A stretch of DNA of 64,000 bases from a virus (lineage: Duplodnaviria; Caudoviricetes): the IMG/VR virus record IMGVR_UViG_3300037851_000141, positions 1 to 64,000 of that record; one strand, written 5' to 3'. Of this stretch, positions 1,008-61,054 are shown one piece after another. The notes beneath the pieces are model-generated. The model did no database searches. It saw only the letters and a list, made by a program, of their open reading frames with translations, and had not been told where the DNA came from. How positions within the stretch are numbered: position 1 is the stretch's first letter; every line of letters begins with the position of its first letter. The translations under genes were made by a program, and so were the position numbers.

Positions 1008-2996
1008 TCAAGTATACGTACAACATACATTACCTCTTGTATATTTAAATGTTATTTTTCCATCTTGCATAATAGCATCGGAATCTATATTTATTATAGC
1101 GCAACCACTTCCTTCATTGGCTTTAAATTGAAATCCAACATATTCAGGCTTTATTTCTTTTTTACCACAAGAATTACCATCGGCCAAAGTTATTAATTTC
1201 ATGACATTAGCTTCAGTTGATGATGGGGCTGCCGGCGACGACGCTATAGAATCTACAAATTTAGGCATTTTATTATATGTCGCAATATGATCACAACCTT
1301 GTAAAGAAGTTGAAACATCAATTGCGATGGTGTCACCAGCACAAACTTCATTGTTTAATATAACTTGACTTATAAAAACTGGTATTTTTACTTTTGTTTT
1401 CTTGTATGTACAATCAGCATTATCGTATGTTATATCAGATACAACAGTTGCTCCAGTATCACTTCTTTGACACTCAATATTACCGTTAATAAAAACACTA
1501 GGATATTTAACATCAACATATGAACATGTTGGGTCGCCCTCTAATGTAACTGAACCACCACCACCGCCACCCGCAACAACAATTCCAACTTTTCCAGCAA
1601 TAAGATGTCGTTTCCTTCCATCTATACATTGATCAGGATTTTCGACCATAGGAACAACTTTACCTGATATATTAGAAACATTTACTATTACTTGTGGACA
1701 TACCGCAATTTCAGTTACAACATTAATAAGTTCAGCTAAACCGCCACCACAACCCGTTCCAGTTTCACCATCCCCATTAGTATCAAAACGTAGACTAGAT
1801 GTAGAGAATATTAAATTTTTACACCCCTTTGATGTCGTCTCTGTACCTATATTATTTACAGCTACAAATGTTCCACCTGGAGAACCACCACATAATGTTG
1901 AAACTCCAACTATACCACTATTATAAAGTAGCCCGCCTTTGTCAGTAGCTTCAAGAGTTAAACCGCAACCATATTCAAGAGTTTCAACACACTCTAAGCA
2001 TATGCCATCGTTTCCTTTAGGGCCAGTAGCACCTGTAGCACCTGTAGCGCCAGCAGGACCAGTAGCTCCCGTAGCACCAGTTGATCCTGGAGGACCGGCG
2101 GGACCAACGGGGCCAGCAGCACCAGTTGGACCAATAGGACCGGGAGGGCCAGGAGGACCGGGAGGGCCAGGAGGACCAGGAATGGTTACAAATCCTGGAT
2201 TACAAGCGAAACCAAAGGCATATGTAAATCCGCGTGTATCACGAATATTCAACATATATACGGTGTTGCTTGACATTCCAGATATTTGTATTGTATGATC
2301 GTCAATAACAGTAAACGTTATATCTCCACATACGCCATATCCAAGAAGACTATCGATAGCATATGTCTGAGAGCATTGATATGTGTCAAATAATAAACAT
2401 TCTGAACCACTTAATAAGATTTGTCCACATCCAGAACAATCAATTCCGACAGTTGTATAAGATTGATTAGAAACATAGCCTAATACGGTATCATCACATT
2501 TTACAGAAATAGATTCTTGACATGTAATTTTCGGATCATATAAGAATCCATAAGGCATCTTTTTACCAACAATTAGGTTAGAACAAAGTATATTTCCACC
2601 ACTCATAGCAGGAACAAATGATAATCCACCGGGAATTGAATCGCTTAAATAAAGATCGCCACCTAATTGACCTGGAATAACTGTAGGATCTGGAGAGTCA
2701 ACTTCAACTAAACCATCACCATCAACAGTAAAATATTCTTTAGTTAATGGGAATCTATACATCATTGGGCCGGGTGTCTGTTTGAGGAAGAAATTATGTT
2801 CACCCTCAAACGACCAAACAACACCAGCAACGTTATTTTTTCCAGGTGCAGCAAGAGCTAACTGATATTTTCCATTGCAATCAAGATATACAAGTTTACC
2901 AATAGCTAACTCTGTAGAACAATTTAACTGATAAATCAATTTAGGATCAGTATGAACGTGACCTGTTGTAGCATCTCTTCTTCTGGTAATTGTCAT
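1008..2996 (-). CDS. Collagen-like, Cys-rich fibre protein (head or tail fibre)
   Basis: 19 Gly-X-Y triplets; N-terminal region resembles cement/decoration-type domains (LVYLD...YQLA...GVV...LYLSD..PG); 28 Cys. Start moved from 3029 to 2996 because of an AAGGA RBS and because the late promoter abuts 3029. Confidence 0.75.
2007..2177 (-). repeat. Collagen triple-helix repeat (Gly-X-Y)19
   Basis: [57 protein letters not shown]. Confidence 0.95.
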
Positions 2997-3029
2997 ATTT
3001 GGTCCTTTTATTATAACATGTCTCGTCAT

Positions 3030-3037
3030 TATTTATA
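3030..3037 (-). promoter_or_regulatory. T4-type late promoter TATAAATA
   Basis: Exact match to the T4 gp55 late-promoter consensus, upstream of the fibre gene. Confidence 0.75.
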
Positions 3038-3054
3038 TTTTTTTTTATGCGACT

Positions 3055-3063
3055 TGCTATAAT
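3055..3063 (+). promoter_or_regulatory. Extended -10 sigma70-type promoter (TGcTATAAT)
   Basis: TGn-TATAAT lies 27 nt upstream of the plus-strand cluster; no clear -35. Confidence 0.5.
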
Positions 3064-3090
3064 ATATATATACACTTAAAGGAACCTAAT

Positions 3091-3273
3091 ATGATTGATC
3101 TTATTTGCCCTAAATGTAAAACAATAATAACAGTAAGACACAATACTGGAAACATCTACTGTCCGAAATGTCTTGCTTCAGAGAGTTCCAATGTTATAAT
3201 GTATGAGAGCCAAGACACCAAGAAACCAAAGAACTTAGGTGGTGGCTTTTTTGAGAAACCCAAGGAGTCATAA
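3091..3273 (+). CDS. Small zinc-ribbon protein
   Basis: Two CPKC motifs; AAGGA RBS. Confidence 0.7.
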   Translation: MIDLICPKCKTIITVRHNTGNIYCPKCLASESSNVIMYESQDTKKPKNLGGGFFEKPKES

Positions 3274-3848
3274 TGTCATTTATAATAGGTTTAGCTGGTC
3301 CTGCTGGTGTTGGAAAGACGACAACAGCAAAGGGAATCGCCTACAATCTTATTTCAATTGACAAGAAATTAGATATACAGTGTGATGCTTTTGCCACTCC
3401 ACTTTATCATATTTGTTCTTATTTGACTGGAGTGCCTGTAGAGACGTTAGCATCGCAGGAATATAAGAATGTTGAGTGGACAGTAGAAACAGCGCCATTA
3501 CCTTGTTTGGTTGGCTGGACTCCGAGAAAGTTCATACAAAAGACTGGAACTGAGTGTTTTAGACATGTAATTAGTATGGATTTTTGGGTTCAAGTTTCAC
3601 GTAAGTTATTATCAAAACACGACATAGTTATAATGGCTGATGCTCGGTTTGACAATGAATATTTAGCTTGCGATTATGTTATTGAGTTAAGTAGACCTGG
3701 GGTTGATTATGCTGGGAATCATGCTTCAGCGATGCCACCAGATAAGAAATATATAAACTGTAAGATACAACTTTATCCTGAGCTTTCATTTATGTCACTT
3801 GCTCAGATAATTATGTCGTTATATAACAAGAAAAAGGAGGCTAAATGA
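3273..3848 (+). CDS. Deoxynucleoside monophosphate kinase (T4 gp1-like)
   Basis: IIGLAGPAGVGKTT P-loop, AFATPL, TPRKFIQKTGTE, DFWV and ADARFDNE motifs. Confidence 0.9.
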   Translation: MSFIIGLAGPAGVGKTTTAKGIAYNLISIDKKLDIQCDAFATPLYHICSYLTGVPVETLASQEYKNVEWTVETAPLPCLVGWTPRKFIQKTGTECFRHVISMDFWVQVSRKLLSKHDIVIMADARFDNEYLACDYVIELSRPGVDYAGNHASAMPPDKKYINCKIQLYPELSFMSLAQIIMSLYNKKKEAK

Positions 3849-4087
3849 GTTGGACCGATACCGTATTCAGACCAAAGATTCGTTGTAAAGCATGTGGAGA
3901 TATAATTATTCCTGGCGATGATCCTAAAGAATGGACTATGTGCCTATGTGAAAAAGTTGGTGTTATGGGCAAAGGTAGAGCATATTCTGTTAAAGGTAAG
4001 GATTATGATGATTTAAGTTATATTGATTTTGATAAAGTGCCGGAACATAAAGGTTGGGACGACAAAAACAAAGAAAAAGGAAACTAA
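3845..4087 (+). CDS. Small Cys-motif (Zn-binding) phage protein
   Basis: IRCKACGDII and CLC motifs; ATGA overlap with the kinase gene. Confidence 0.7.
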   Translation: MSWTDTVFRPKIRCKACGDIIIPGDDPKEWTMCLCEKVGVMGKGRAYSVKGKDYDDLSYIDFDKVPEHKGWDDKNKEKGN

Positions 4088-53356: not shown

Positions 53357-55351
53357 TTATACTTTCTCAGTAACTTCACTAAACTCAACCCCTTGCGCGA
53401 CGGCAGTAAATGTAAGTTTAAGAAATTCTGAAACTCTTGTTGGCTTGACAAGGATTTCAGCGCGGAACTCATTGGCGTTGATTACTGCTGAAGTGTTGTT
53501 AGATTCGTCGCAAACTGTGAGGTAATCATACACACCACGTTTAGCTTTAACACTTGCTAAGAATGGATTTACGATACCACGGAAGCGAGACCGGCCGAAG
53601 TCATCATTAAGTTCAAACACGAAGTAGCGAGCCATCTTCTTAATGCTCTTTTCAAGGTATAAGAAGAGACGACGAACATTAATACGATCAAACGCACTTG
53701 CGGTAGATTGTAATGTCTTTTGACCCCAGATTACGATACCTTCACCGACAAAGTTTACAACAGGGTTGATTCTATTGTAGTAAAGAATATCACGTTGAGC
53801 CTTATTTGGGTTGACAGCTACATCGATAACATTGCTAATGATACCACGGTTTAGGCCAGCAGGAGCATACCATTGGGCATCATTGAAATCAGTATATGCC
53901 ATTACAGCAGCAGCAAATCCAGAGACAGGAACCCAACGTTCTTTTTCAGCAAAGCGATCAAAAATCTTGAAGTAGTTGCCGTAAATCGCAGAGTATGAAC
54001 TATTGATCTTAAGTGTATTGGCAACGTAGTTCTTCATAGTTGTATAAACGTTGGCAATAGCTTTATATGTGGTTGTATTCTGGATTTGATCTTGACGAAC
54101 GTTGAGGATAGCCATACAATCTTTACGTATTTCACGGCAGATTTGGTCAAGATAACGCTTAATTTCATCAACATAGTCTGGGTCAAGGAGTAAATCAACT
54201 TCCAGTTCTTCTGGGTTGGTGAAGTTCTCTTGCCAAGCAGTCATAATTTCGCCAGTAAGATCACCAAGACCAGTTCCAACTGTATCACCAGTCAACTTAT
54301 CATACCCACTAGCAACGTCATAATCAGTAAAGCCAAGGAATGTACGACGAGTTGTTAGTAATTGAGCAGTTGCGGCATTTGTTTCACTGTTTGATATGTA
54401 GAAATAGATATATTCAGACTTACCATTTACAAGAGTTGGACCAAACATGATATTGCCTTGTTCGTCCTTCTTGTCTTTATTTGTTGAGAATACATAAGTT
54501 TCAATTGGAGTGTTGAACTCATTGAATACGATTAGAACACCTTCATCGTCTTCATCTGGACCATACTCAAATCCAGTAATAGTTGAAAGCATATCATAAT
54601 CGATAGTCCAATCTTCACCAACAACAGTAGGAGGAACTAATAGATCATACTTAGCTAATGAGTTTGACAGATATTCAACTTCTGGAGTGGCTGATGTTGC
54701 TGGAGTACCATTATAGTATTTTTCAGCAATTGTATTTTGTTCAGTAGTTGTTAATGCTTCAGCAAGTTCATCACGAAGATTTACGGTCTGAACAAAGTCA
54801 TTATAATTGACTGTCATTACAGACACTTGTTGATAGAATGTTCCAGGACCAACCGCATAGAAGTGATATGATTCATTAGCAAGTAAATTATTTCCAACAT
54901 AATCTAATGAGTTGGGATCTGAAGCAGGAAGGTTGGGATCTTTAGAATAATCTATTTTAGCTTCATGTTCTTTTATGACTGAATAAGACAGAGGAAATTG
55001 ATCAGCTTTCTTACTGGTATTTTCTAATATTACAACGTTACCAGCAGATGAAGCAGATGTACCTACAGTTAATCCAGGAACAGCTTTAGTGCTATCTTCA
55101 ATACGGACAGCCCAAAGTTGATTAGATTGTTTTAAGAAGGCTTCAGCAGTAAACCAATGTGTATAGTTCGTATCATTTGGACGACCCATTTTTTGTTCAA
55201 GATCAGTAGGATTTGTCAATAAAACTTTCTTATTCAAAGCACCTTTAGTACTGTGAATAACTATAGCACCAACAGAACTTGTAACTGCTGGTATTGTTTG
55301 ACTTACATCGCGCTCTCTTATACTTACGTCTGGAGATAGATTTTGAGCCAT
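53357..55351 (-). CDS. gp18: Tail sheath protein
   Basis: LSPDVSIRERDVS, KG, WFTAEAFL, WYAPAGLNRG, NRINPV, WGQKTL..FDRINVRRLF. Start at 55351 (AAGGAG RBS). Confidence 0.96.
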   Translation of the reverse strand: MAQNLSPDVSIRERDVSQTIPAVTSSVGAIVIHSTKGALNKKVLLTNPTDLEQKMGRPNDTNYTHWFTAEAFLKQSNQLWAVRIEDSTKAVPGLTVGTSASSAGNVVILENTSKKADQFPLSYSVIKEHEAKIDYSKDPNLPASDPNSLDYVGNNLLANESYHFYAVGPGTFYQQVSVMTVNYNDFVQTVNLRDELAEALTTTEQNTIAEKYYNGTPATSATPEVEYLSNSLAKYDLLVPPTVVGEDWTIDYDMLSTITGFEYGPDEDDEGVLIVFNEFNTPIETYVFSTNKDKKDEQGNIMFGPTLVNGKSEYIYFYISNSETNAATAQLLTTRRTFLGFTDYDVASGYDKLTGDTVGTGLGDLTGEIMTAWQENFTNPEELEVDLLLDPDYVDEIKRYLDQICREIRKDCMAILNVRQDQIQNTTTYKAIANVYTTMKNYVANTLKINSSYSAIYGNYFKIFDRFAEKERWVPVSGFAAAVMAYTDFNDAQWYAPAGLNRGIISNVIDVAVNPNKAQRDILYYNRINPVVNFVGEGIVIWGQKTLQSTASAFDRINVRRLFLYLEKSIKKMARYFVFELNDDFGRSRFRGIVNPFLASVKAKRGVYDYLTVCDESNNTSAVINANEFRAEILVKPTRVSEFLKLTFTAVAQGVEFSEVTEKV

Positions 55352-55390
55352 GCCGTACTCCTTTGTCGAGTCATAATAATCTTCAATCAT

Positions 55391-55398
55391 TATTTATA
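55391..55398 (-). promoter_or_regulatory. T4-type late promoter TATAAATA
   Basis: Exact consensus 39 nt upstream of the sheath ATG at 55351. Confidence 0.75.
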
Positions 55399-55436
55399 TC
55401 GGATAACGTAATAATTCGGGAACTAAATATAACGCT

Positions 55437-57656
55437 TTATTTCGGGTTTCTTAAATTTCTGGCCCGACGCATCTCTGAATTAAATAACCAGTTGTCGGGA
55501 TCATTTTCAGCCTCAACATCAGCTATCATTATTTCAAGAGCATCCTGTAATAATTGGTCCTCTTCGGTCATCATATCTTCAACCGTTACTTCCTCTGGTG
55601 CCATATCATGTTGTCGTACCCATTCCTCTAAATTACTCTTCTTCGTATCTTTATTCACAGCATCATACTTCTCGCCATCAAAGAACTGAGAATGTAAGAA
55701 ATAAGCAAACCAAATACAAGACATTACACAATCATCAGTTAAATTGCGACCAGCCTTAGCCTTAAATACATTCTCCCGTATCTCCTCAAAATAACCAATC
55801 TCATCAATAGTCTGCTTATCATATAATATAATCCGACCACCCTCCAAATCATCCTTAAACCATTGGGCTGCCTTGGGCTTAGTCGCCTTAGTAGCTAATA
55901 CACCATATTCCTTCCGGTCTATATCATAAAATAAGTTCTCGTAAGCATACTCGTCAAATAAACTCTTAACAACATCATCACCATAACCACCAGGATTAAC
56001 TTCAACTATTACATATGCCTTATTCCAATAATTAGCCGACTTGAAAATATAATCAGCCATCTTAGTCGGAGGTAAAGTATTACAACGCCATATAGCAACC
56101 TGTTCCGCAGCAATACCTTTATGAACATGTGTAATATCAAATACGTTCATAATAGTATAATCAGAACCAATACCACCACCAATATCACATGAAATAGCAT
56201 ACTTGTGTCCAGGTTCAGATTGCTTCCACATATTCGTAAACTCGTCTGGCGTCATAATTGGATCAACTTTTTTCAATTTCTCAATAATAAATGTCGGATC
56301 AATAAGTGTAATCGTTGAACCTTGGAATTGACAGTTGTGTGTTAATATGCCATTACAATAAAAGTTATGGGTTTCATTATTTACTTCAAGAACGTCATAT
56401 ACAAAGTCAGTATCAACTACATTAACTGATTTTACAACTTTGGAACCACTTGATGTTAATAAAATGGTCTGGTTTACAATAATATCTTTACATTTTATAA
56501 CTTCAGATTCATTTATAAAAAACTCATGATCTGGAGTACATTTTATTTTTTGATTATTTTCTAACTCTATTTCTAAACAAGTTTCTGGTAATAAAGACTT
56601 TTTGATTCCTAAAAGTGATACCCACCCATCTTTTGTTTTTATTTTAGCAGATTCCCAAAGTGGAGTTAATATATGTAATTCGGCTAATGTAATCTTTTTT
56701 ATCTGATTTTGATGATAAAGTTCAACAATAGAATCTCCAGTTAAACAGTTAAACTCCTGATTAAACCGCATATCACCAATCATCATTCGCATTTCACGTT
56801 CCCATTTTTCATCACGACCAGGAACTTCTCGCCAATTTACCATGAACGGCTTGAATGGGAAACTGGCATTACCATCATTCGCATCTTTCCAAAGTTGATA
56901 GAAAAGATTACCAGTACCATTTGGGGTCGATACAATAATACATCTGCCACCTTCTGCGAGTGTAGGCATGTTACTTGCGAAGAATGCGTCTGCTAACTGT
57001 ACAGGGACGAACGCGAATTCATCTAAAAACAAGCATGATACAGACTCGCCACGTAGCGCATCTTTAGAAGTAGCACGGGCAATTATTTTACATCCATTAT
57101 CAAATTCTATTGAGTGTGCGTTATATTCTTTTACTCCAGGTTTAAGCCATTCTGGTAATTTTTCATAAGCGAATTTTATTTCTTCAAGAATACTTTTAGC
57201 TGTAGACGCTTTGTTAGCAAGAATCGCAATAGTTTTATCTTTCTGGAAACAAGAATACCATAACAAATATATAGCAGAACAAGTTGTATTATGCGAAACA
57301 ATGTTATTAGCAAAATATTCATGTTCATCAGACTCAAGTTCAACATCATACATGTTTTCGCTTGGTATATCTAATTTCTCAAGTTTTGTACATTTATGGA
57401 ATCCAGTATCAGTTTCTATCATTTGACCTACTTGAACATCTTTTACATATATTTCGGTATGATTATCGGTATACACTATATGAGTATCAGCACATTTTAG
57501 ATTATCACCGTTCTCAAGTTCTAAATACCAAACATCATACGGCACAGTCTCCATTATCTTATTTATTGAGGTCCACCCTTGAGGAGTTTTTATCTCATAG
57601 TCAGATACGTCCAATACTGATGTGAATTTTTTATATGGTTGGAATTCTTGATTCAT
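55437..57656 (-). CDS. terL: Terminase large subunit, C-terminal fragment (IntC, ATPase remainder, mini-intein, nuclease)
   Basis: ILANK..TA, RGESVSCLFLDEFAF (Walker B), IVSTPNG, CDIGGG.GSDY, DDCVM (gp17 motifs). Confidence 0.93.
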   Translation of the reverse strand: MNQEFQPYKKFTSVLDVSDYEIKTPQGWTSINKIMETVPYDVWYLELENGDNLKCADTHIVYTDNHTEIYVKDVQVGQMIETDTGFHKCTKLEKLDIPSENMYDVELESDEHEYFANNIVSHNTTCSAIYLLWYSCFQKDKTIAILANKASTAKSILEEIKFAYEKLPEWLKPGVKEYNAHSIEFDNGCKIIARATSKDALRGESVSCLFLDEFAFVPVQLADAFFASNMPTLAEGGRCIIVSTPNGTGNLFYQLWKDANDGNASFPFKPFMVNWREVPGRDEKWEREMRMMIGDMRFNQEFNCLTGDSIVELYHQNQIKKITLAELHILTPLWESAKIKTKDGWVSLLGIKKSLLPETCLEIELENNQKIKCTPDHEFFINESEVIKCKDIIVNQTILLTSSGSKVVKSVNVVDTDFVYDVLEVNNETHNFYCNGILTHNCQFQGSTITLIDPTFIIEKLKKVDPIMTPDEFTNMWKQSEPGHKYAISCDIGGGIGSDYTIMNVFDITHVHKGIAAEQVAIWRCNTLPPTKMADYIFKSANYWNKAYVIVEVNPGGYGDDVVKSLFDEYAYENLFYDIDRKEYGVLATKATKPKAAQWFKDDLEGGRIILYDKQTIDEIGYFEEIRENVFKAKAGRNLTDDCVMSCIWFAYFLHSQFFDGEKYDAVNKDTKKSNLEEWVRQHDMAPEEVTVEDMMTEEDQLLQDALEIMIADVEAENDPDNWLFNSEMRRARNLRNPK
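56334..56747 (-). other. Contiguous mini-intein (138 aa) in TerL
   Basis: QEFN|CLTGDS..KCTPDH..VYDV..FYCNGILTHN|CQF; blocks A, B, F and G are present with no endonuclease domain. Confidence 0.92.
57288..57656 (-). other. Split-intein C-part (IntC, 123 aa)
   Basis: IKTPQGW..LKCADTH..V.VG..MYDV..YFANNIVSHN|T; no block A Cys1. Confidence 0.9.
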
Positions 57657-58803
57657 ATTTTTCCAGTATTTTTTTAATTAGATTATTCGTTATAATATCT
57701 TTATCCGATTTATATTCGTGTTCTTTAACGTGAATAAATTCGATATTTGGATTAAAATTTACTATATTTTGTTCTCTATTTTGGTTTCTCGTTTTGTTAA
57801 CATCCGCCCTAGATAAATGTTTACCGTGCCAATAATCTCCATCAAACTCTATACACAAATCAATACCTTTTATATAAAAATCCAATTTAGCATATGAGTC
57901 AACTGTTTCTATTTTATATTCATGATTTTTTCCAGACTCATCTTTTTGACCATTATTATTCTGAGCAAAATATGTTGAAGATTTTAATTCTATTGGAAGT
58001 TTATCAAAAATATTCCAAAATAACTCTTGCGATATTTTAGAAAAATTTCTTTTTTTATAATTGGTAATCCATTTATCTTGCCGTTGTTTCCAACGTAATC
58101 TACCATCAATTTCACCATATTTCTGAATACATTTTTCTAATGTAAATGTTTGTTGACGTTCTCTGACTTTTAATCTTGCTTGTTCTTCAGTTAATCCCTT
58201 GTTAGTCCAATATTTTAAGTGATTTGGCATTAGTTGGAGATTTGGGTCTTTTTTCTTTCTTTCTTTTAATGTAGACATTGCGGTTTCAATTCTATTTGTA
58301 TTTTTAGCATACCAACTTGTTGAACATGAAAAAGAACAAAAGTTAGCAATACCCTTTCCAAGACCTCTAAATCGTAATGGTTGTCCACATTCTAAACACT
58401 TCATACTAGGATTTTCGGGATTCATATATTTTATATAATAATCTAATAATGACATTTCGGGATGACATTTTTTAATATGTTTGGCAAGTGATGATTTATT
58501 AGGAACTCCAAAATTACAAATCTGACAAGAATATTCCATTTTCATATTGTTTTTGTGTGTTTCTCGTTCAATATGTTTCAGCGACTTAAATCCATGGTTA
58601 AATTGTTTGTGCCTTATCATTTTTTCTTCACTTGGAAACAATTCTCCACAAACATCACACGGAATGATCCACCCTAAATATTTTTGTTTATATTCGTTTA
58701 ACGTAATGTCTGGGTGTTCTTTTGTTATATGCCCATATATATTATATTTACTAATGGGCTTTCCACATAAAGGGCAGTTATTTATATCAGGGTGCCGCAT
58801 CAT
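57631..58803 (-). CDS. Free-standing endonuclease inside the fractured terL (C2H2 fingers plus a Vsr-like domain)
   Basis: Three C2H2-type motifs (CPLC..H..H, CDVC..H..H, CQIC..H..H), CLEC/FCSFSC and LDFYI..IEFDGDYWHG. Confidence 0.8.
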   Translation of the reverse strand: MMRHPDINNCPLCGKPISKYNIYGHITKEHPDITLNEYKQKYLGWIIPCDVCGELFPSEEKMIRHKQFNHGFKSLKHIERETHKNNMKMEYSCQICNFGVPNKSSLAKHIKKCHPEMSLLDYYIKYMNPENPSMKCLECGQPLRFRGLGKGIANFCSFSCSTSWYAKNTNRIETAMSTLKERKKKDPNLQLMPNHLKYWTNKGLTEEQARLKVRERQQTFTLEKCIQKYGEIDGRLRWKQRQDKWITNYKKRNFSKISQELFWNIFDKLPIELKSSTYFAQNNNGQKDESGKNHEYKIETVDSYAKLDFYIKGIDLCIEFDGDYWHGKHLSRADVNKTRNQNREQNIVNFNPNIEFIHVKEHEYKSDKDIITNNLIKKILEKYESRIPTI

Positions 58804-58822
58804 ATTATATTCTCCACATTTC

Positions 58823-58830
58823 TATTTATA
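58823..58830 (-). promoter_or_regulatory. T4-type late promoter TATAAATA for the endonuclease/terL-C unit
   Basis: Exact consensus 19 nt upstream of the ATG at 58803; GGAG RBS. Confidence 0.75.
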
Positions 58831-58863
58831 TTGCGTAGACTGAATATTTTTTATGATTCTTGG

Positions 58864-59232
58864 TTATTCGGGAAACGTTTGAAGGTTTGATATTGCTTTA
58901 AACAACTCATATATACTAATTTCTTGAATTTTCCCTGTGTTTTTATTTCTTATAGTAATTAACATATCTTTGTGTAAACATTTTCCAATTTGTCGGGCGC
59001 TATTTATTAATGAGAACCTATGATTTTGGAATATATCGACCATATTTTTTTGATAAGGTCGGAGAACTATTTTTTGAGAACCTTGAGTGGGGTGGACGAC
59101 ATAGTAATAATTTTCAGCGAAGTAAATTACACTTTGTATACATTGCGCCCATTCAACTATCATTTCTTGTGTATAGTTGATTTTTTTATCTGGTCTTTTT
59201 ATTAATCCTTTATCATCATATTTAATAGGCAT
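58864..59232 (-). CDS. terL: Terminase large subunit, N-terminal fragment plus IntN
   Basis: EW..C..YFAENY..LRPYQK..RQIGK (Q motif and Walker A), then CLHKDMLITI..EISI.EL and a stop. Confidence 0.9.
   Translation of the reverse strand: MPIKYDDKGLIKRPDKKINYTQEMIVEWAQCIQSVIYFAENYYYVVHPTQGSQKIVLRPYQKNMVDIFQNHRFSLINSARQIGKCLHKDMLITIRNKNTGKIQEISIYELFKAISNLQTFPE
58867..58980 (-). other. Split-intein N-part (IntN, 38 aa)
   Basis: GK|CLHKDMLITIRNKNTGKIQEISIYELFKAISNLQTFPE-stop; block A only. Confidence 0.88.
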
Positions 59233-59240
59233 AGAAGAGA

Positions 59241-59858
59241 TTATACCTTATTTTCTTCAGTTTTTATTACATCAGCAGTTGTTTCTTTTACTTCTTTTTT
59301 ATATGATCCTGGTGGTGTAATTCCTTTAGCAGCAAGCATGTCAAGAATATCTGAGTTTGTACCGATGAGTATATTTGTTGTACCACCAGCCATTCCAATA
59401 CCAGCATTCATACTTTGATTTTGTAAGACTAGCTTTTTTTGTTCAAACTGTTCTCTTGCGAGTTGTTGTTTAGAAATATTGATAAGTATTTTATTATAGC
59501 TATCCATTATTCCATTTATAGCTGAAACCATTGCTGCTGCTGTTTCTACTGCTCTCCCGCTTGGATTATCTTCGATTTCAGTTTGTATAGCCGCGAGCAT
59601 AACCATGGCACGTTCAGTGAGATTTTTTAGTATTGTTTTTGAGAATTCTGTATCTGGTAGGTCTTTTATTTTATTGAATTCCTCTTTCATTTTATTTACT
59701 TCTTGACGAGCGACATCTATTTTGGCTTGAAGTTCTTCGGTTTCTTCGGAGTTAAAGTCAAGATTATCTGAGTTACCATCAATATTTAAGATATCTTCGA
59801 TGGATTTGAACGATTTTGATTTTTTCTTTTTTTCTTTTGATTCGTCATTATTTTCCAT
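59241..59858 (-). CDS. gp16: Terminase small subunit (T4 gp16-like)
   Basis: PSGRAVE.AA.M..NILIGTNSDILDML resembles gp16; lies between gp15 and gp17. Confidence 0.7.
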   Translation of the reverse strand: MENNDESKEKKKKSKSFKSIEDILNIDGNSDNLDFNSEETEELQAKIDVARQEVNKMKEEFNKIKDLPDTEFSKTILKNLTERAMVMLAAIQTEIEDNPSGRAVETAAAMVSAINGIMDSYNKILINISKQQLAREQFEQKKLVLQNQSMNAGIGMAGGTTNILIGTNSDILDMLAAKGITPPGSYKKEVKETTADVIKTEENKV

Positions 59859-59866
59859 GGTTTATC

Positions 59867-61054
59867 CTAATCTTGAAGGTGAGGTAAATTGGTTGGCGCA
59901 TCTGGATAATCATCATTTGGTATAACAGTTGGCCCTTCTATTATATCACCAGTTGGGCTTAATTTCTTATAATATGATACAATGATGATACGTGCGCCTT
60001 GAGTTGGAGAGTCTATTACTTCTTGGACTTCCTGATAATATATGGTTATTTGTTGAGTAGTAGAATCGACAAATACAATAGGTTTACGCGGCAATAAGGT
60101 ACAAGGTGATGGTTGTTCTGGATCTATTGTACCATCTGAATTAAGATCCCAACCCGGTCTTGGAGGTATTGGTTCTTGACAGTTATCAGATACACAACCA
60201 GAAAAAGAGGGTGGATTCATGACGTTATTAGCGAATCTCCATCTATTTACCATCAAGTCATATTTTTCACCAGCATCTAAATCGCGGATAGACAGTGAAA
60301 TAATACGATCTTCTATAGCTTCTGGAGTTGCGTCTGATGAATCTGCTGCTATTATCTTTTCACCTTGGAATGGAATTCGTTTACATGGAACATCTGATAT
60401 ACTAATGATTGAACATAAGATTTCTTTAGATAAGTTCATTGGTTGATATAAAACAGCCTGCATCGTAAAAGCCATATTTGTTAACAGTACGCGACGATCT
60501 TCTTCTTTAAGTTCTATTGTATTATTGAATGTTGTTGAGTTATGGATGACTTTACATTTACGTTCTATACCGAAGTTACGTTCTTTGATTGATACATATA
60601 TTTCTGGAGCGAAGAATGGTAAAATATTTTCTATAAGTTGTTTCATATCTATATCATATTTTGCCCACACCGTAACTTCGAAACTTAAGTCATATGGTGT
60701 TGGTTGAACGTCGGTTTGGATACTTCTACGTTGACCAGTTGTAGCGTCAAGATATTCAATATTCATCAGACGTTTCTCAAATTTACCACGCATTCTTTCA
60801 GGAACCCAAGTTATGCCAGCCCAATTTATAGATATTCTTGGAAGGTAATTATCAACTTGTGGGTCTACATCATTAATATCAGTTTTTAGTAATATTGATG
60901 CGATTTTTTCTTTAGATGCCAGAGATATAGGAACTGGTTTAATACCTACAATTCTTCCATCATTATCAAATACACGAACCGACATATTATTGAAGATATC
61001 AGCAAATGCCAGTATGTGTGTATATAGGGATTTGGGGTAAAAATAGTCTTTCAC
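59867..61054 (-). CDS. gp15: Tail sheath stabiliser/terminator
   Basis: FADIFNN..VPISLA.KEK..LPRIS..PTPYDL.FEV..D..Q..E.ILPFFAP. Confidence 0.92.
   Translation of the reverse strand: MKDYFYPKSLYTHILAFADIFNNMSVRVFDNDGRIVGIKPVPISLASKEKIASILLKTDINDVDPQVDNYLPRISINWAGITWVPERMRGKFEKRLMNIEYLDATTGQRRSIQTDVQPTPYDLSFEVTVWAKYDIDMKQLIENILPFFAPEIYVSIKERNFGIERKCKVIHNSTTFNNTIELKEEDRRVLLTNMAFTMQAVLYQPMNLSKEILCSIISISDVPCKRIPFQGEKIIAADSSDATPEAIEDRIISLSIRDLDAGEKYDLMVNRWRFANNVMNPPSFSGCVSDNCQEPIPPRPGWDLNSDGTIDPEQPSPCTLLPRKPIVFVDSTTQQITIYYQEVQEVIDSPTQGARIIIVSYYKKLSPTGDIIEGPTVIPNDDYPDAPTNLPHLQD

Follow-up and report, generated by a model that had tools for sequence, protein, structure and literature searches.

A large-terminase gene of a T4-like jumbo phage, probably fractured at Walker A by a split intein with a free-standing nuclease gene between its halves

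The DNA analysed here, a stretch of 64,000 nucleotides referred to below as the window, is the first 64 kb of the 331,849-bp IMG/VR virus record IMGVR_UViG_3300037851_000141 (Duplodnaviria; Caudoviricetes; estimated completeness 92%), which derives from a freshwater T4-like jumbo phage. On its minus strand the gene for the large terminase (terL), whose product is the motor protein of DNA packaging, is distributed over separate open reading frames (ORFs). Sequence comparison and structure modelling make it very probable that this terL is a fractured gene, interrupted by a split intein and a free-standing nuclease gene, and that trans-splicing is required to obtain its product. In particular, the only large-terminase gene of the genome, of the T4 gp17 type, would have been invaded by a selfish cassette of 1693 nt between the Walker A Lys and Thr codons, the cassette being an intein broken after its first helix, at the atypical S2 position, by a gene that encodes a free-standing homing endonuclease. 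Three proteins would be produced, namely TerL(1-84) fused to an N-terminal intein half (IntN) of 38 amino acids (aa), the nuclease, and a C-terminal intein half (IntC) of 123 aa fused to the remainder of TerL (TerL-C). Docking of IntN on IntC would complete the HINT fold, and class 1 trans-splicing by Cys1, the block B His, the block F Asp, the terminal His-Asn and Thr+1 would then join RQIGK to TT. For an active TerL (about 562 aa), a second, paralogous intein would have to be removed by cis-splicing as well. Presumably the nuclease cleaves intein-free terL alleles carried by co-infecting relatives, at the conserved sequence coding for Walker A, and repair would then copy in the cassette, a process known as homing.

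The anatomy of the locus (Table 1) bears out what a preliminary description of this DNA had read from the letters: the N-terminal piece (TerL-N) ends in RQIGK followed by a Cys and 37 further residues, the C-terminal piece opens with 123 residues ending in HN before a Thr, two in-frame stops lie between the halves, and a 390-aa C2H2/Vsr-like ORF overlaps IntC in another frame. The overlap measures 26 nt (57631-57656). The prediction that splicing would restore RQIGKTT also agrees with the sequence of a relative. Specifically, IntC ends in SHN and is followed by TTCSAIY, the start of the downstream extein, and conceptual ligation gives RQIGK-TTCSAIY, which aligns without a gap to the intact Walker A motif SRQSGKTTSVG of an intein-less relative (L003). 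When both inteins are removed in silico, a 562-aa protein results that is colinear with the uninterrupted 516-aa TerL of L003 and gap-free at both junctions. The exteins match T4 gp17 structures in a sequence search of the structure database (E 2e-50), and Pfam recognizes Terminase_6N (E 4e-16), Terminase_6C and an intein splicing domain on the 739-aa ORF.

The residues of a class 1 intein are present, with Cys85 of TerL-N directly after the Walker A Lys and Thr124 after the terminal Asn of IntC. Across split and contiguous relatives, Cys1, the block B His, the block F Met and Asp (NMYD) and the final Ser-His-Asn are invariant, and Thr+1 is found in at least 90% of the relatives. Ten contiguous relatives carry the intein unbroken (152-188 aa) at GK/C...SHN/TT, the slash marking the junctions here and below, and their variable, low-complexity linker falls exactly at the break of the window intein. 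A profile of these contiguous sequences aligns the window IntN on positions 1-36 (independent E-value 7.6e-9) and IntC on positions 45-170 (2e-47). The shortest of them (P0229) was modelled as a HINT domain with a predicted local confidence (pLDDT) of 88 and a predicted TM score (pTM) of 0.83, in the order strand, strand, helix and then a lower-confidence loop. In Foldseek its best solved match is the VidaL intein (6vgv, E 1.7e-9, TM 0.82), all of its top 50 matches are intein or HINT-type (BIL) domains, and 67 matches are found at E <= 0.001. Because this relative shows the succession of strand, strand, helix and loop, the predicted fold places the split at S2, after helix 1, in the sense defined in PMC13014065, where the same position is assigned to AceL-TerL and GOS-TerL. 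In sequence comparison with the PDB, the best matches of IntC are VidaL, gp41-1 and CatC, and IntN alone finds no match.

The two halves are also predicted to fit together. A complex model of IntC(1-130) with TerL-N(78-122) reached an interface score (ipSAE) of 0.82 versus 0.23 for the best control; in the benchmark of this approach the mark was reached by 51 of the 78 solved complexes and by 2 of the 108 mismatched pairs. The partner has a pLDDT of at least 77, the runs share at least 78% of their contacts, and IntN residues 85-98 are placed against blocks B, F and G. With regard to selection, ratios of nonsynonymous to synonymous substitution rates (dN/dS), calculated against two relatives with the same layout (L004 and L005), are 0.12-0.23 for IntC, 0.42-0.51 for IntN and 0.28-0.52 for the nuclease, suggesting that IntC is under purifying selection and, roughly, as constrained as the extein.

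Some observations weigh against the interpretation as an active split intein. Block B has Ala (ADTH) where most inteins have Thr, a substitution that is probably tolerated, by analogy, because VidaL shares it (AFNH). The dN/dS values are only rough because dS is saturated. The complex model may have passed its controls in part because the predictor had learned solved split inteins; since similar split inteins have already been solved, the docking should be read as likeness and not as proof of binding. Furthermore, the run search placed the locus in no RNA run. Finally, a second terL could still sit in the unassembled remainder of a genome estimated to be 92% complete, although the 331,849-bp record holds one Terminase_6N locus only and tblastn gave no other match in it. 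The earlier conjecture that an intact copy elsewhere might make this one redundant thus found no counterpart in the genome, and the proposal that DNA packaging depends on trans-splicing is supported by the lack of another terL in the assembled sequence.

The same gene contains a second, contiguous intein, which bears directly on the number of processing steps. This element matches the solved consensus TerL intein, Cat, its similarity to CatC having an E-value of 8e-7 and CatN, a chain that begins with EFE, aligning at its N end. In detail, CatN begins EFE/A(C)LSGDTM and CatC ends SHA/CE, and both align to the second intein of the window and not to the Walker A site. Since Cat matches this second intein, the AceL, GOS and Cat inteins belong to the downstream EF site, as the preliminary description had stated. 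The second intein is 30% identical over 106 residues to the IntC of the split intein (E 4e-12), and on this sequence similarity the two inteins of this terL are paralogues. It is missing from the TerL of L003, where the corresponding site is uninterrupted and reads FAQEFAVEFLGS. As a contiguous intein sits in the same gene as the split one, mature TerL would need two splicing events.

The layout TerS, TerL-N, nuclease and IntC-TerL-C (TerS being the small-terminase-like ORF) recurs in at least five diverged assemblies, namely a JGI contig (L004, nuclease identity 60%), a Logan contig (L005, 49%), a 133-kb JGI contig (L009) and two ENA contigs. The overlap between the nuclease and IntC frames measures 20 nt in L004 and 26 nt in L005 and is absent from L009. 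Because the three-ORF layout is present in independent assemblies with nuclease identities of 44-60%, it is real and no assembly error, and the claim that a single sequencing error could not account for the fracture is upheld. Empty sites exist as well. A relative with 72-82% nucleotide identity (L007) has the empty Walker A site ARQTGK/TVCAAIF, and blastn colinearity with it breaks exactly at the limits of the cassette. In a groundwater run (X3), the homology of related contigs stops exactly at 57287 and starts again in the N-extein (from 59047 and 59191), and one contig has only about 170 bases left after the homology ends at the 57287 break-point, too few for the cassette; over 55300-59400 the contigs of this run are mostly less than 95% identical to the window, many of them less than 90%. 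As the Walker A cassette is missing from some of these contigs, both kinds of allele, occupied and empty, are in circulation among related populations. One freshwater metagenome run holds the whole locus perfectly, and run X2 holds scattered short pieces of it only.

Other terL genes show further interruptions. In one of the ENA contigs (ERZ1426824, 45 kb) terL comprises three genes (116, 334 and 387 aa), that is, it is fractured twice, and the gene table lists a C2H2/Vsr-like nuclease and a DUF7487 protein as the intervening ORFs. In L007 (5001-5615) the TerL N-terminal piece ends just before Walker B with ALIF/C, 32 aa and a stop, which by its sequence appears to be another short-IntN split intein at a third terL site. 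A 554-aa IntC-TerL fragment (P0152) has, at the Walker B region, another IntN-like segment that starts with Cys and runs in frame into a GIY-YIG/NUMOD nuclease, i.e., an IntN fused to its nuclease.

The protein encoded between the intein halves comprises three C2H2 fingers, a Cys4 knuckle, a helical region and a C-terminal catalytic domain of the Vsr-like or I-Bth0305I type. Pfam detects zf-C2H2 above its cut-off (27.3 bits), whereas Vsr reaches only E 0.068 on the single sequence; homologues of the nuclease carry PF04480/PF18741. A profile of 55 nuclease sequences matches the catalytic domain of I-Bth0305I (3r3p) with an E-value of 1.2e-4 and C2H2 finger arrays with 2e-8. An AlphaFold2 model (pLDDT 90.9) has three beta-beta-alpha fingers and a C-terminal alpha/beta domain, the latter matching 3r3p in Foldseek (probability 0.96-0.98, TM relative to the target 0.55-0.58); the whole model returns weak rows only, the best with an E-value of 4e-3. 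In the family D307, E318 and H325 are invariant and D320 nearly so. Mainly by its sequence profile, the protein can thus be placed in the Vsr-like / I-Bth0305I family, and it presumably acts as a free-standing homing endonuclease with the Walker A coding sequence as its likely target. Its gene is present in a single copy in this genome.

Other explanations of the interrupted gene have to be weighed against trans-splicing. In one, the terminase pieces would assemble non-covalently, the intein halves serving only as dimerisation domains and no peptide bond being formed. There is precedent for fractured proteins that do without splicing, as the nuclease-split NrdA of phage Aeh1 is functional in this state (PMC3045599), and an SbcD-like locus without splicing is described in PMC2677866; moreover, the complex model speaks of docking only. 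A pure docking module, however, needs none of the catalytic residues (Cys1, block B His, block F Asp, His-Asn and Thr+1) that are invariant or nearly so here, and a HINT domain of about 160 aa between the P-loop Lys and Thr would presumably interfere with ATP binding, which makes such an assembly improbable. Slightly less probable still is decay, in which invasion by the nuclease would have inactivated this terL and left a pseudogene in a genome that is defective or satellite-dependent. The two stops and the change of frame would suit that idea, and the record is a metagenomic assembly of unproven viability. Nonetheless, no other terL was found, all three ORFs are intact, and the layout is kept under purifying selection in relatives with 44-60% nuclease identity and is shared by hundreds of clusters; in addition, a cultured and viable phage, Delftia phage PhiW-14, has the split form.

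In a further alternative, the interruption would be lost from the RNA as part of an unrecognised intron, or translation would bypass it, a contiguous TerL with the intein inside being the outcome. Group I introns, too, can contain Vsr-like nucleases (PMC2677866, PMC3239194), and TerL-N and the nuclease share a reading frame. On the other hand, a search of 55000-59900 against Rfam, with E-values up to 1, returned no intron and no other RNA family, IntC lies in a different frame and has an ATG and an N-terminal segment of its own, both conserved among over 100 proteins that were called separately, and in a gp46-like homologue (L008) nothing but a stop and 3 nt lies between the halves, so that this explanation must be regarded as slightly more remote than decay. 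An artefact of assembly or sequencing, finally, is hardly credible. The sequence does come from a metagenome assembly, and the sole run with full coverage is probably its source, but the same architecture, with diverged sequence, is found in independent assemblies from other samples. Trans-splicing of a fractured terL hence stands as by far the most probable reading.

Table 1. Position of the terL pieces, the two inteins, the nuclease gene and the flanking genes in the window
Feature	Coordinates	Strand	Remarks
TerL-N ORF	58864-59232	-	122 aa = 84-aa extein + 38-aa IntN; TAA stop at 58866-58864
TerL N-extein, 84 aa, ending in Walker A ARQIGK	58981-59232	-	aligns to residues 1-83 of the intein-less L003 TerL and to the empty-site L007
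IntN, 38 aa (Cys1 + 37 aa), strand-strand-helix, then TAA	58864-58980	-	profile match and docking model
Spacer	58804-58863	-	in-frame TAG 58824-58822, TATAAATA 58830-58823, GGAG 58815-58812; from sequence, function putative
Nuclease ORF, 390 aa	57631-58803	-	same reading frame as TerL-N
IntC + TerL-C ORF, 739 aa	55437-57656	-	frame differs from that of TerL-N and nuclease
IntC, 123 aa, blocks B (CADTH), F (NMYDV), G (SHN)	57288-57656	-	own ATG inside nuclease ORF
Whole mobile cassette (IntN, nuclease gene, IntC), 1693 nt	57288-58980	-	missing from empty-site relatives
TerL middle extein, rest of ATPase domain with Walker B (LFLDEFAF)	56748-57287	-	residues 124-303 of 739-aa ORF; Pfam Terminase_6N, T4 gp17 structures
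Second, contiguous mini-intein, 138 aa, QEFN/C...THN/CQF	56334-56747	-	residues 304-441 of 739-aa ORF; CatC/CatN match
TerL C-extein, RNaseH-like nuclease domain	55437-56333	-	Pfam Terminase_6C; T4/RB49 gp17 C-domain structures
Sheath gene	53357-55390	-	
Small-terminase-like ORF (TerS)	59241-59858	-	putative; named from its position between a gp15-like gene and terL

The spacer in front of the nuclease gene contains putative expression signals. The nuclease ATG starts 8 nt after GGAG, and a T4 late-promoter-like TATAAATA lies 20 nt upstream of the ATG. The late promoter proposed previously is thus present as a motif match, but only as such, as the motif is not found genome-wide above the expectation from composition (50 and 30 copies on the two strands versus 42 expected per strand) and is exact in only one (L005) of three relatives. 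In the window, 13 copies lie on the minus strand, which carries the genes examined (53-62 kb), and 2 on the plus strand; one copy stands directly upstream of the sheath gene (55398-55391). The stretch GGAGAATA...ATG is conserved in L004 and L009. A scan for promoters and terminators returned sigma-70-like sites not above shuffled expectation and no terminator-like sites, and the region upstream of the nuclease gene showed no hairpin that was stable or conserved.

The surroundings of the locus follow a T4-like gene order on the minus strand, with gp13-gp15, the small-terminase-like ORF, the terL pieces and the sheath gene. Elsewhere in this genome, outside the window, a mini-intein is found in a family B DNA polymerase (126420-129608, plus strand; L010), and an intein with a LAGLIDADG domain in the T4-like portal protein gp20 (98069-101065, minus strand; L011).

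The general arrangement has a clear precedent in the fractured genes described by Dassa, London, Stoddard, Schueler-Furman and Pietrokovski in 2009 (PMC2677866), in which adjacent extein ORFs with intein halves lie on the same strand and a free-standing Vsr-like endonuclease is encoded between them. The window fits this pattern. In that work the Vsr-like family occurs in half of the fractured genes, and the 3' end of the nuclease gene overlaps the IntC ORF by 6-69 bp (PMC2677866), a range that includes the 26 nt observed here. Among the genes listed is a Lake Gatun gp17 'Terminase', 'fractured at an unusual point', whose 122-residue C-part lacks only motif N1 (PMC2677866), to be compared with 123 aa in the window. 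The published locus is a partial assembly, whereas that of the window is complete, forms part of a 332-kb genome and includes a further intein within terL; as the main text of that article does not state where its terminase is interrupted, the two may or may not be the same allele.

Among characterised inteins, AceL-TerL, GOS-TerL and Cat (PDB 6DSL) share with the window element the TerL host, the S2 split and a short IntN (25-37 aa versus 38 aa here), and Cat is homologous, the family profile of the window IntC matching CatC with an E-value of 2.2e-9. They are inserted at EFE/CE and use Cys+1, whereas the split intein of the window lies at GK/TT, with Lys-1 and Thr+1. Because insertion site and +1 residue differ, the window intein is a relative and not the same allele. 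As regards the +1 residue, PolB16 uses Ser, and AceL, GOS and Cat use Cys. VidaL (PDB 6VGV) is the closest solved relative of the window family (profile E 9.3e-13) and likewise has Ala at the block B Thr position; the difference lies in the split, which in VidaL falls after strand 2 (S1) and leaves a 16-aa IntN (PMC13014065), compared with S2 in the window.

Inteins at the same insertion point are already on record in contiguous form. Salmonella phage Marshall (NC_022772, Ackermannviridae) is annotated with an 'intein from Cys110 to Asn268' at the identical site, ARQSGK/C...LSHN/TTVVAAF, which IntC matches over 95% of the query in tblastn (E 6e-13), and Vibrio phage Kuja has a contiguous intein at the same site. 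Both are unbroken mini-inteins that have a short linker and lack a nuclease gene, whereas in the window the position of the linker holds the nuclease gene and the intein consists of two polypeptides. The TerL1-a inteins of mycobacteriophages are likewise inserted between the Walker A Lys and the Thr nucleophile, the 'classic' P-loop site (Kelley et al. 2016, PMC5050341); however, they are contiguous and belong to proteins of another terminase family, Terminase_1. A cultured counterpart is Delftia phage PhiW-14 (GQ357915), in which the Walker A intein is split at the same position. Specifically, an unannotated 155-aa ORF between gp16 and gp17 (L013, 2479-2946) corresponds to the TerL N-piece, with GK/C and an IntN of about 41 aa, and the annotated gp17 begins with an IntC ending in SHN/TTT. 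In contrast to the window, a spacer of 48 nt without a nuclease separates the halves, and GenBank annotates neither the N piece nor the intein. Judged by its sequence, PhiW-14 is therefore a cultured phage with an unrecognised, putative split-intein terminase.

The locus belongs to a large group of sequences. Among the best 120 metagenome matches to IntC plus the first extein residues, IntC lies at the extreme N terminus, i.e., in the split form, in 102 and internally in 12, with 6 unparsed; about a dozen of these 120 are gp46/SbcC-like ATPases. An exhaustive profile search found 3673 representatives at E <= 0.001, 1267 at 1e-10 and 446 at 1e-30, the 446 being clusters at 50% identity, and the match is N-terminal in about 127 of the 150 best representatives. 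A protein-mode search of cultured phages gave 309 records with a match that covers 80% or more of IntC. Other searches were sparse: a word-index search with TerL-N retrieved three proteins only, and a distant-mode DNA search of the phage collection with the whole locus retrieved nothing. The L008 locus (1757-4024) encodes a gp46/SbcC-like ATPase split at its P-loop (GTGK/C...SHN/TT) by the same intein family, with a stop and 3 nt between the halves and no nuclease gene; it adjoins a putative gp47/SbcD-like gene (337 aa, no Pfam match on record). Among the papers available for the literature search, none combines a naturally split intein, TerL and Walker A.

In the light of these findings, the suggestion that this may be a new short-N intein is borne out as to length, the IntN measuring 38 aa, and overstated as to novelty, given the 122-residue IntC of the Dassa terminase, the Marshall annotation and the hundreds of clusters. 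The concepts stay as they were, since fractured genes, atypical splits and insertion at the P-loop had already been established. The locus differs from the characterised examples by its insertion at Walker A GK/T and not at EFE/C, by the Lys-1/Thr+1 junction, by the C2H2 fingers of its nuclease, and in that one gene holds two paralogous inteins, the one split and the other contiguous.

The locus would represent a clean and complete natural example of an essential phage motor protein that can be made only by a trans-splicing event together with a cis-splicing event. Its relatives provide a whole evolutionary series for the splitting of an intein, from the empty site through the contiguous intein to the split forms with and without a nuclease. 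In addition, a 38-aa IntN with a Lys-1/Thr+1 junction, whose chemistry is unlike that of the characterised short-IntN inteins, could extend the toolbox for protein labelling. A broader possibility, to be entertained only tentatively and perhaps more doubtful than not, is that the locus is one instance of a very large P-loop (GK/T) intein family of T4-like and jumbo phages, as far as found not formally described, which would be mostly S2-split (IntN 31-41 aa, Cys1/Thr+1), would move between unrelated ATPases (TerL, gp46/SbcC-like) and would show every stage of the gene-breaking model of Dassa and colleagues. Were this true, the family would naturally supply a wealth of short-IntN split inteins that are orthogonal to one another and have a +1 residue other than Cys, and PhiW-14 would offer a tractable system for asking whether trans-splicing gates DNA packaging.

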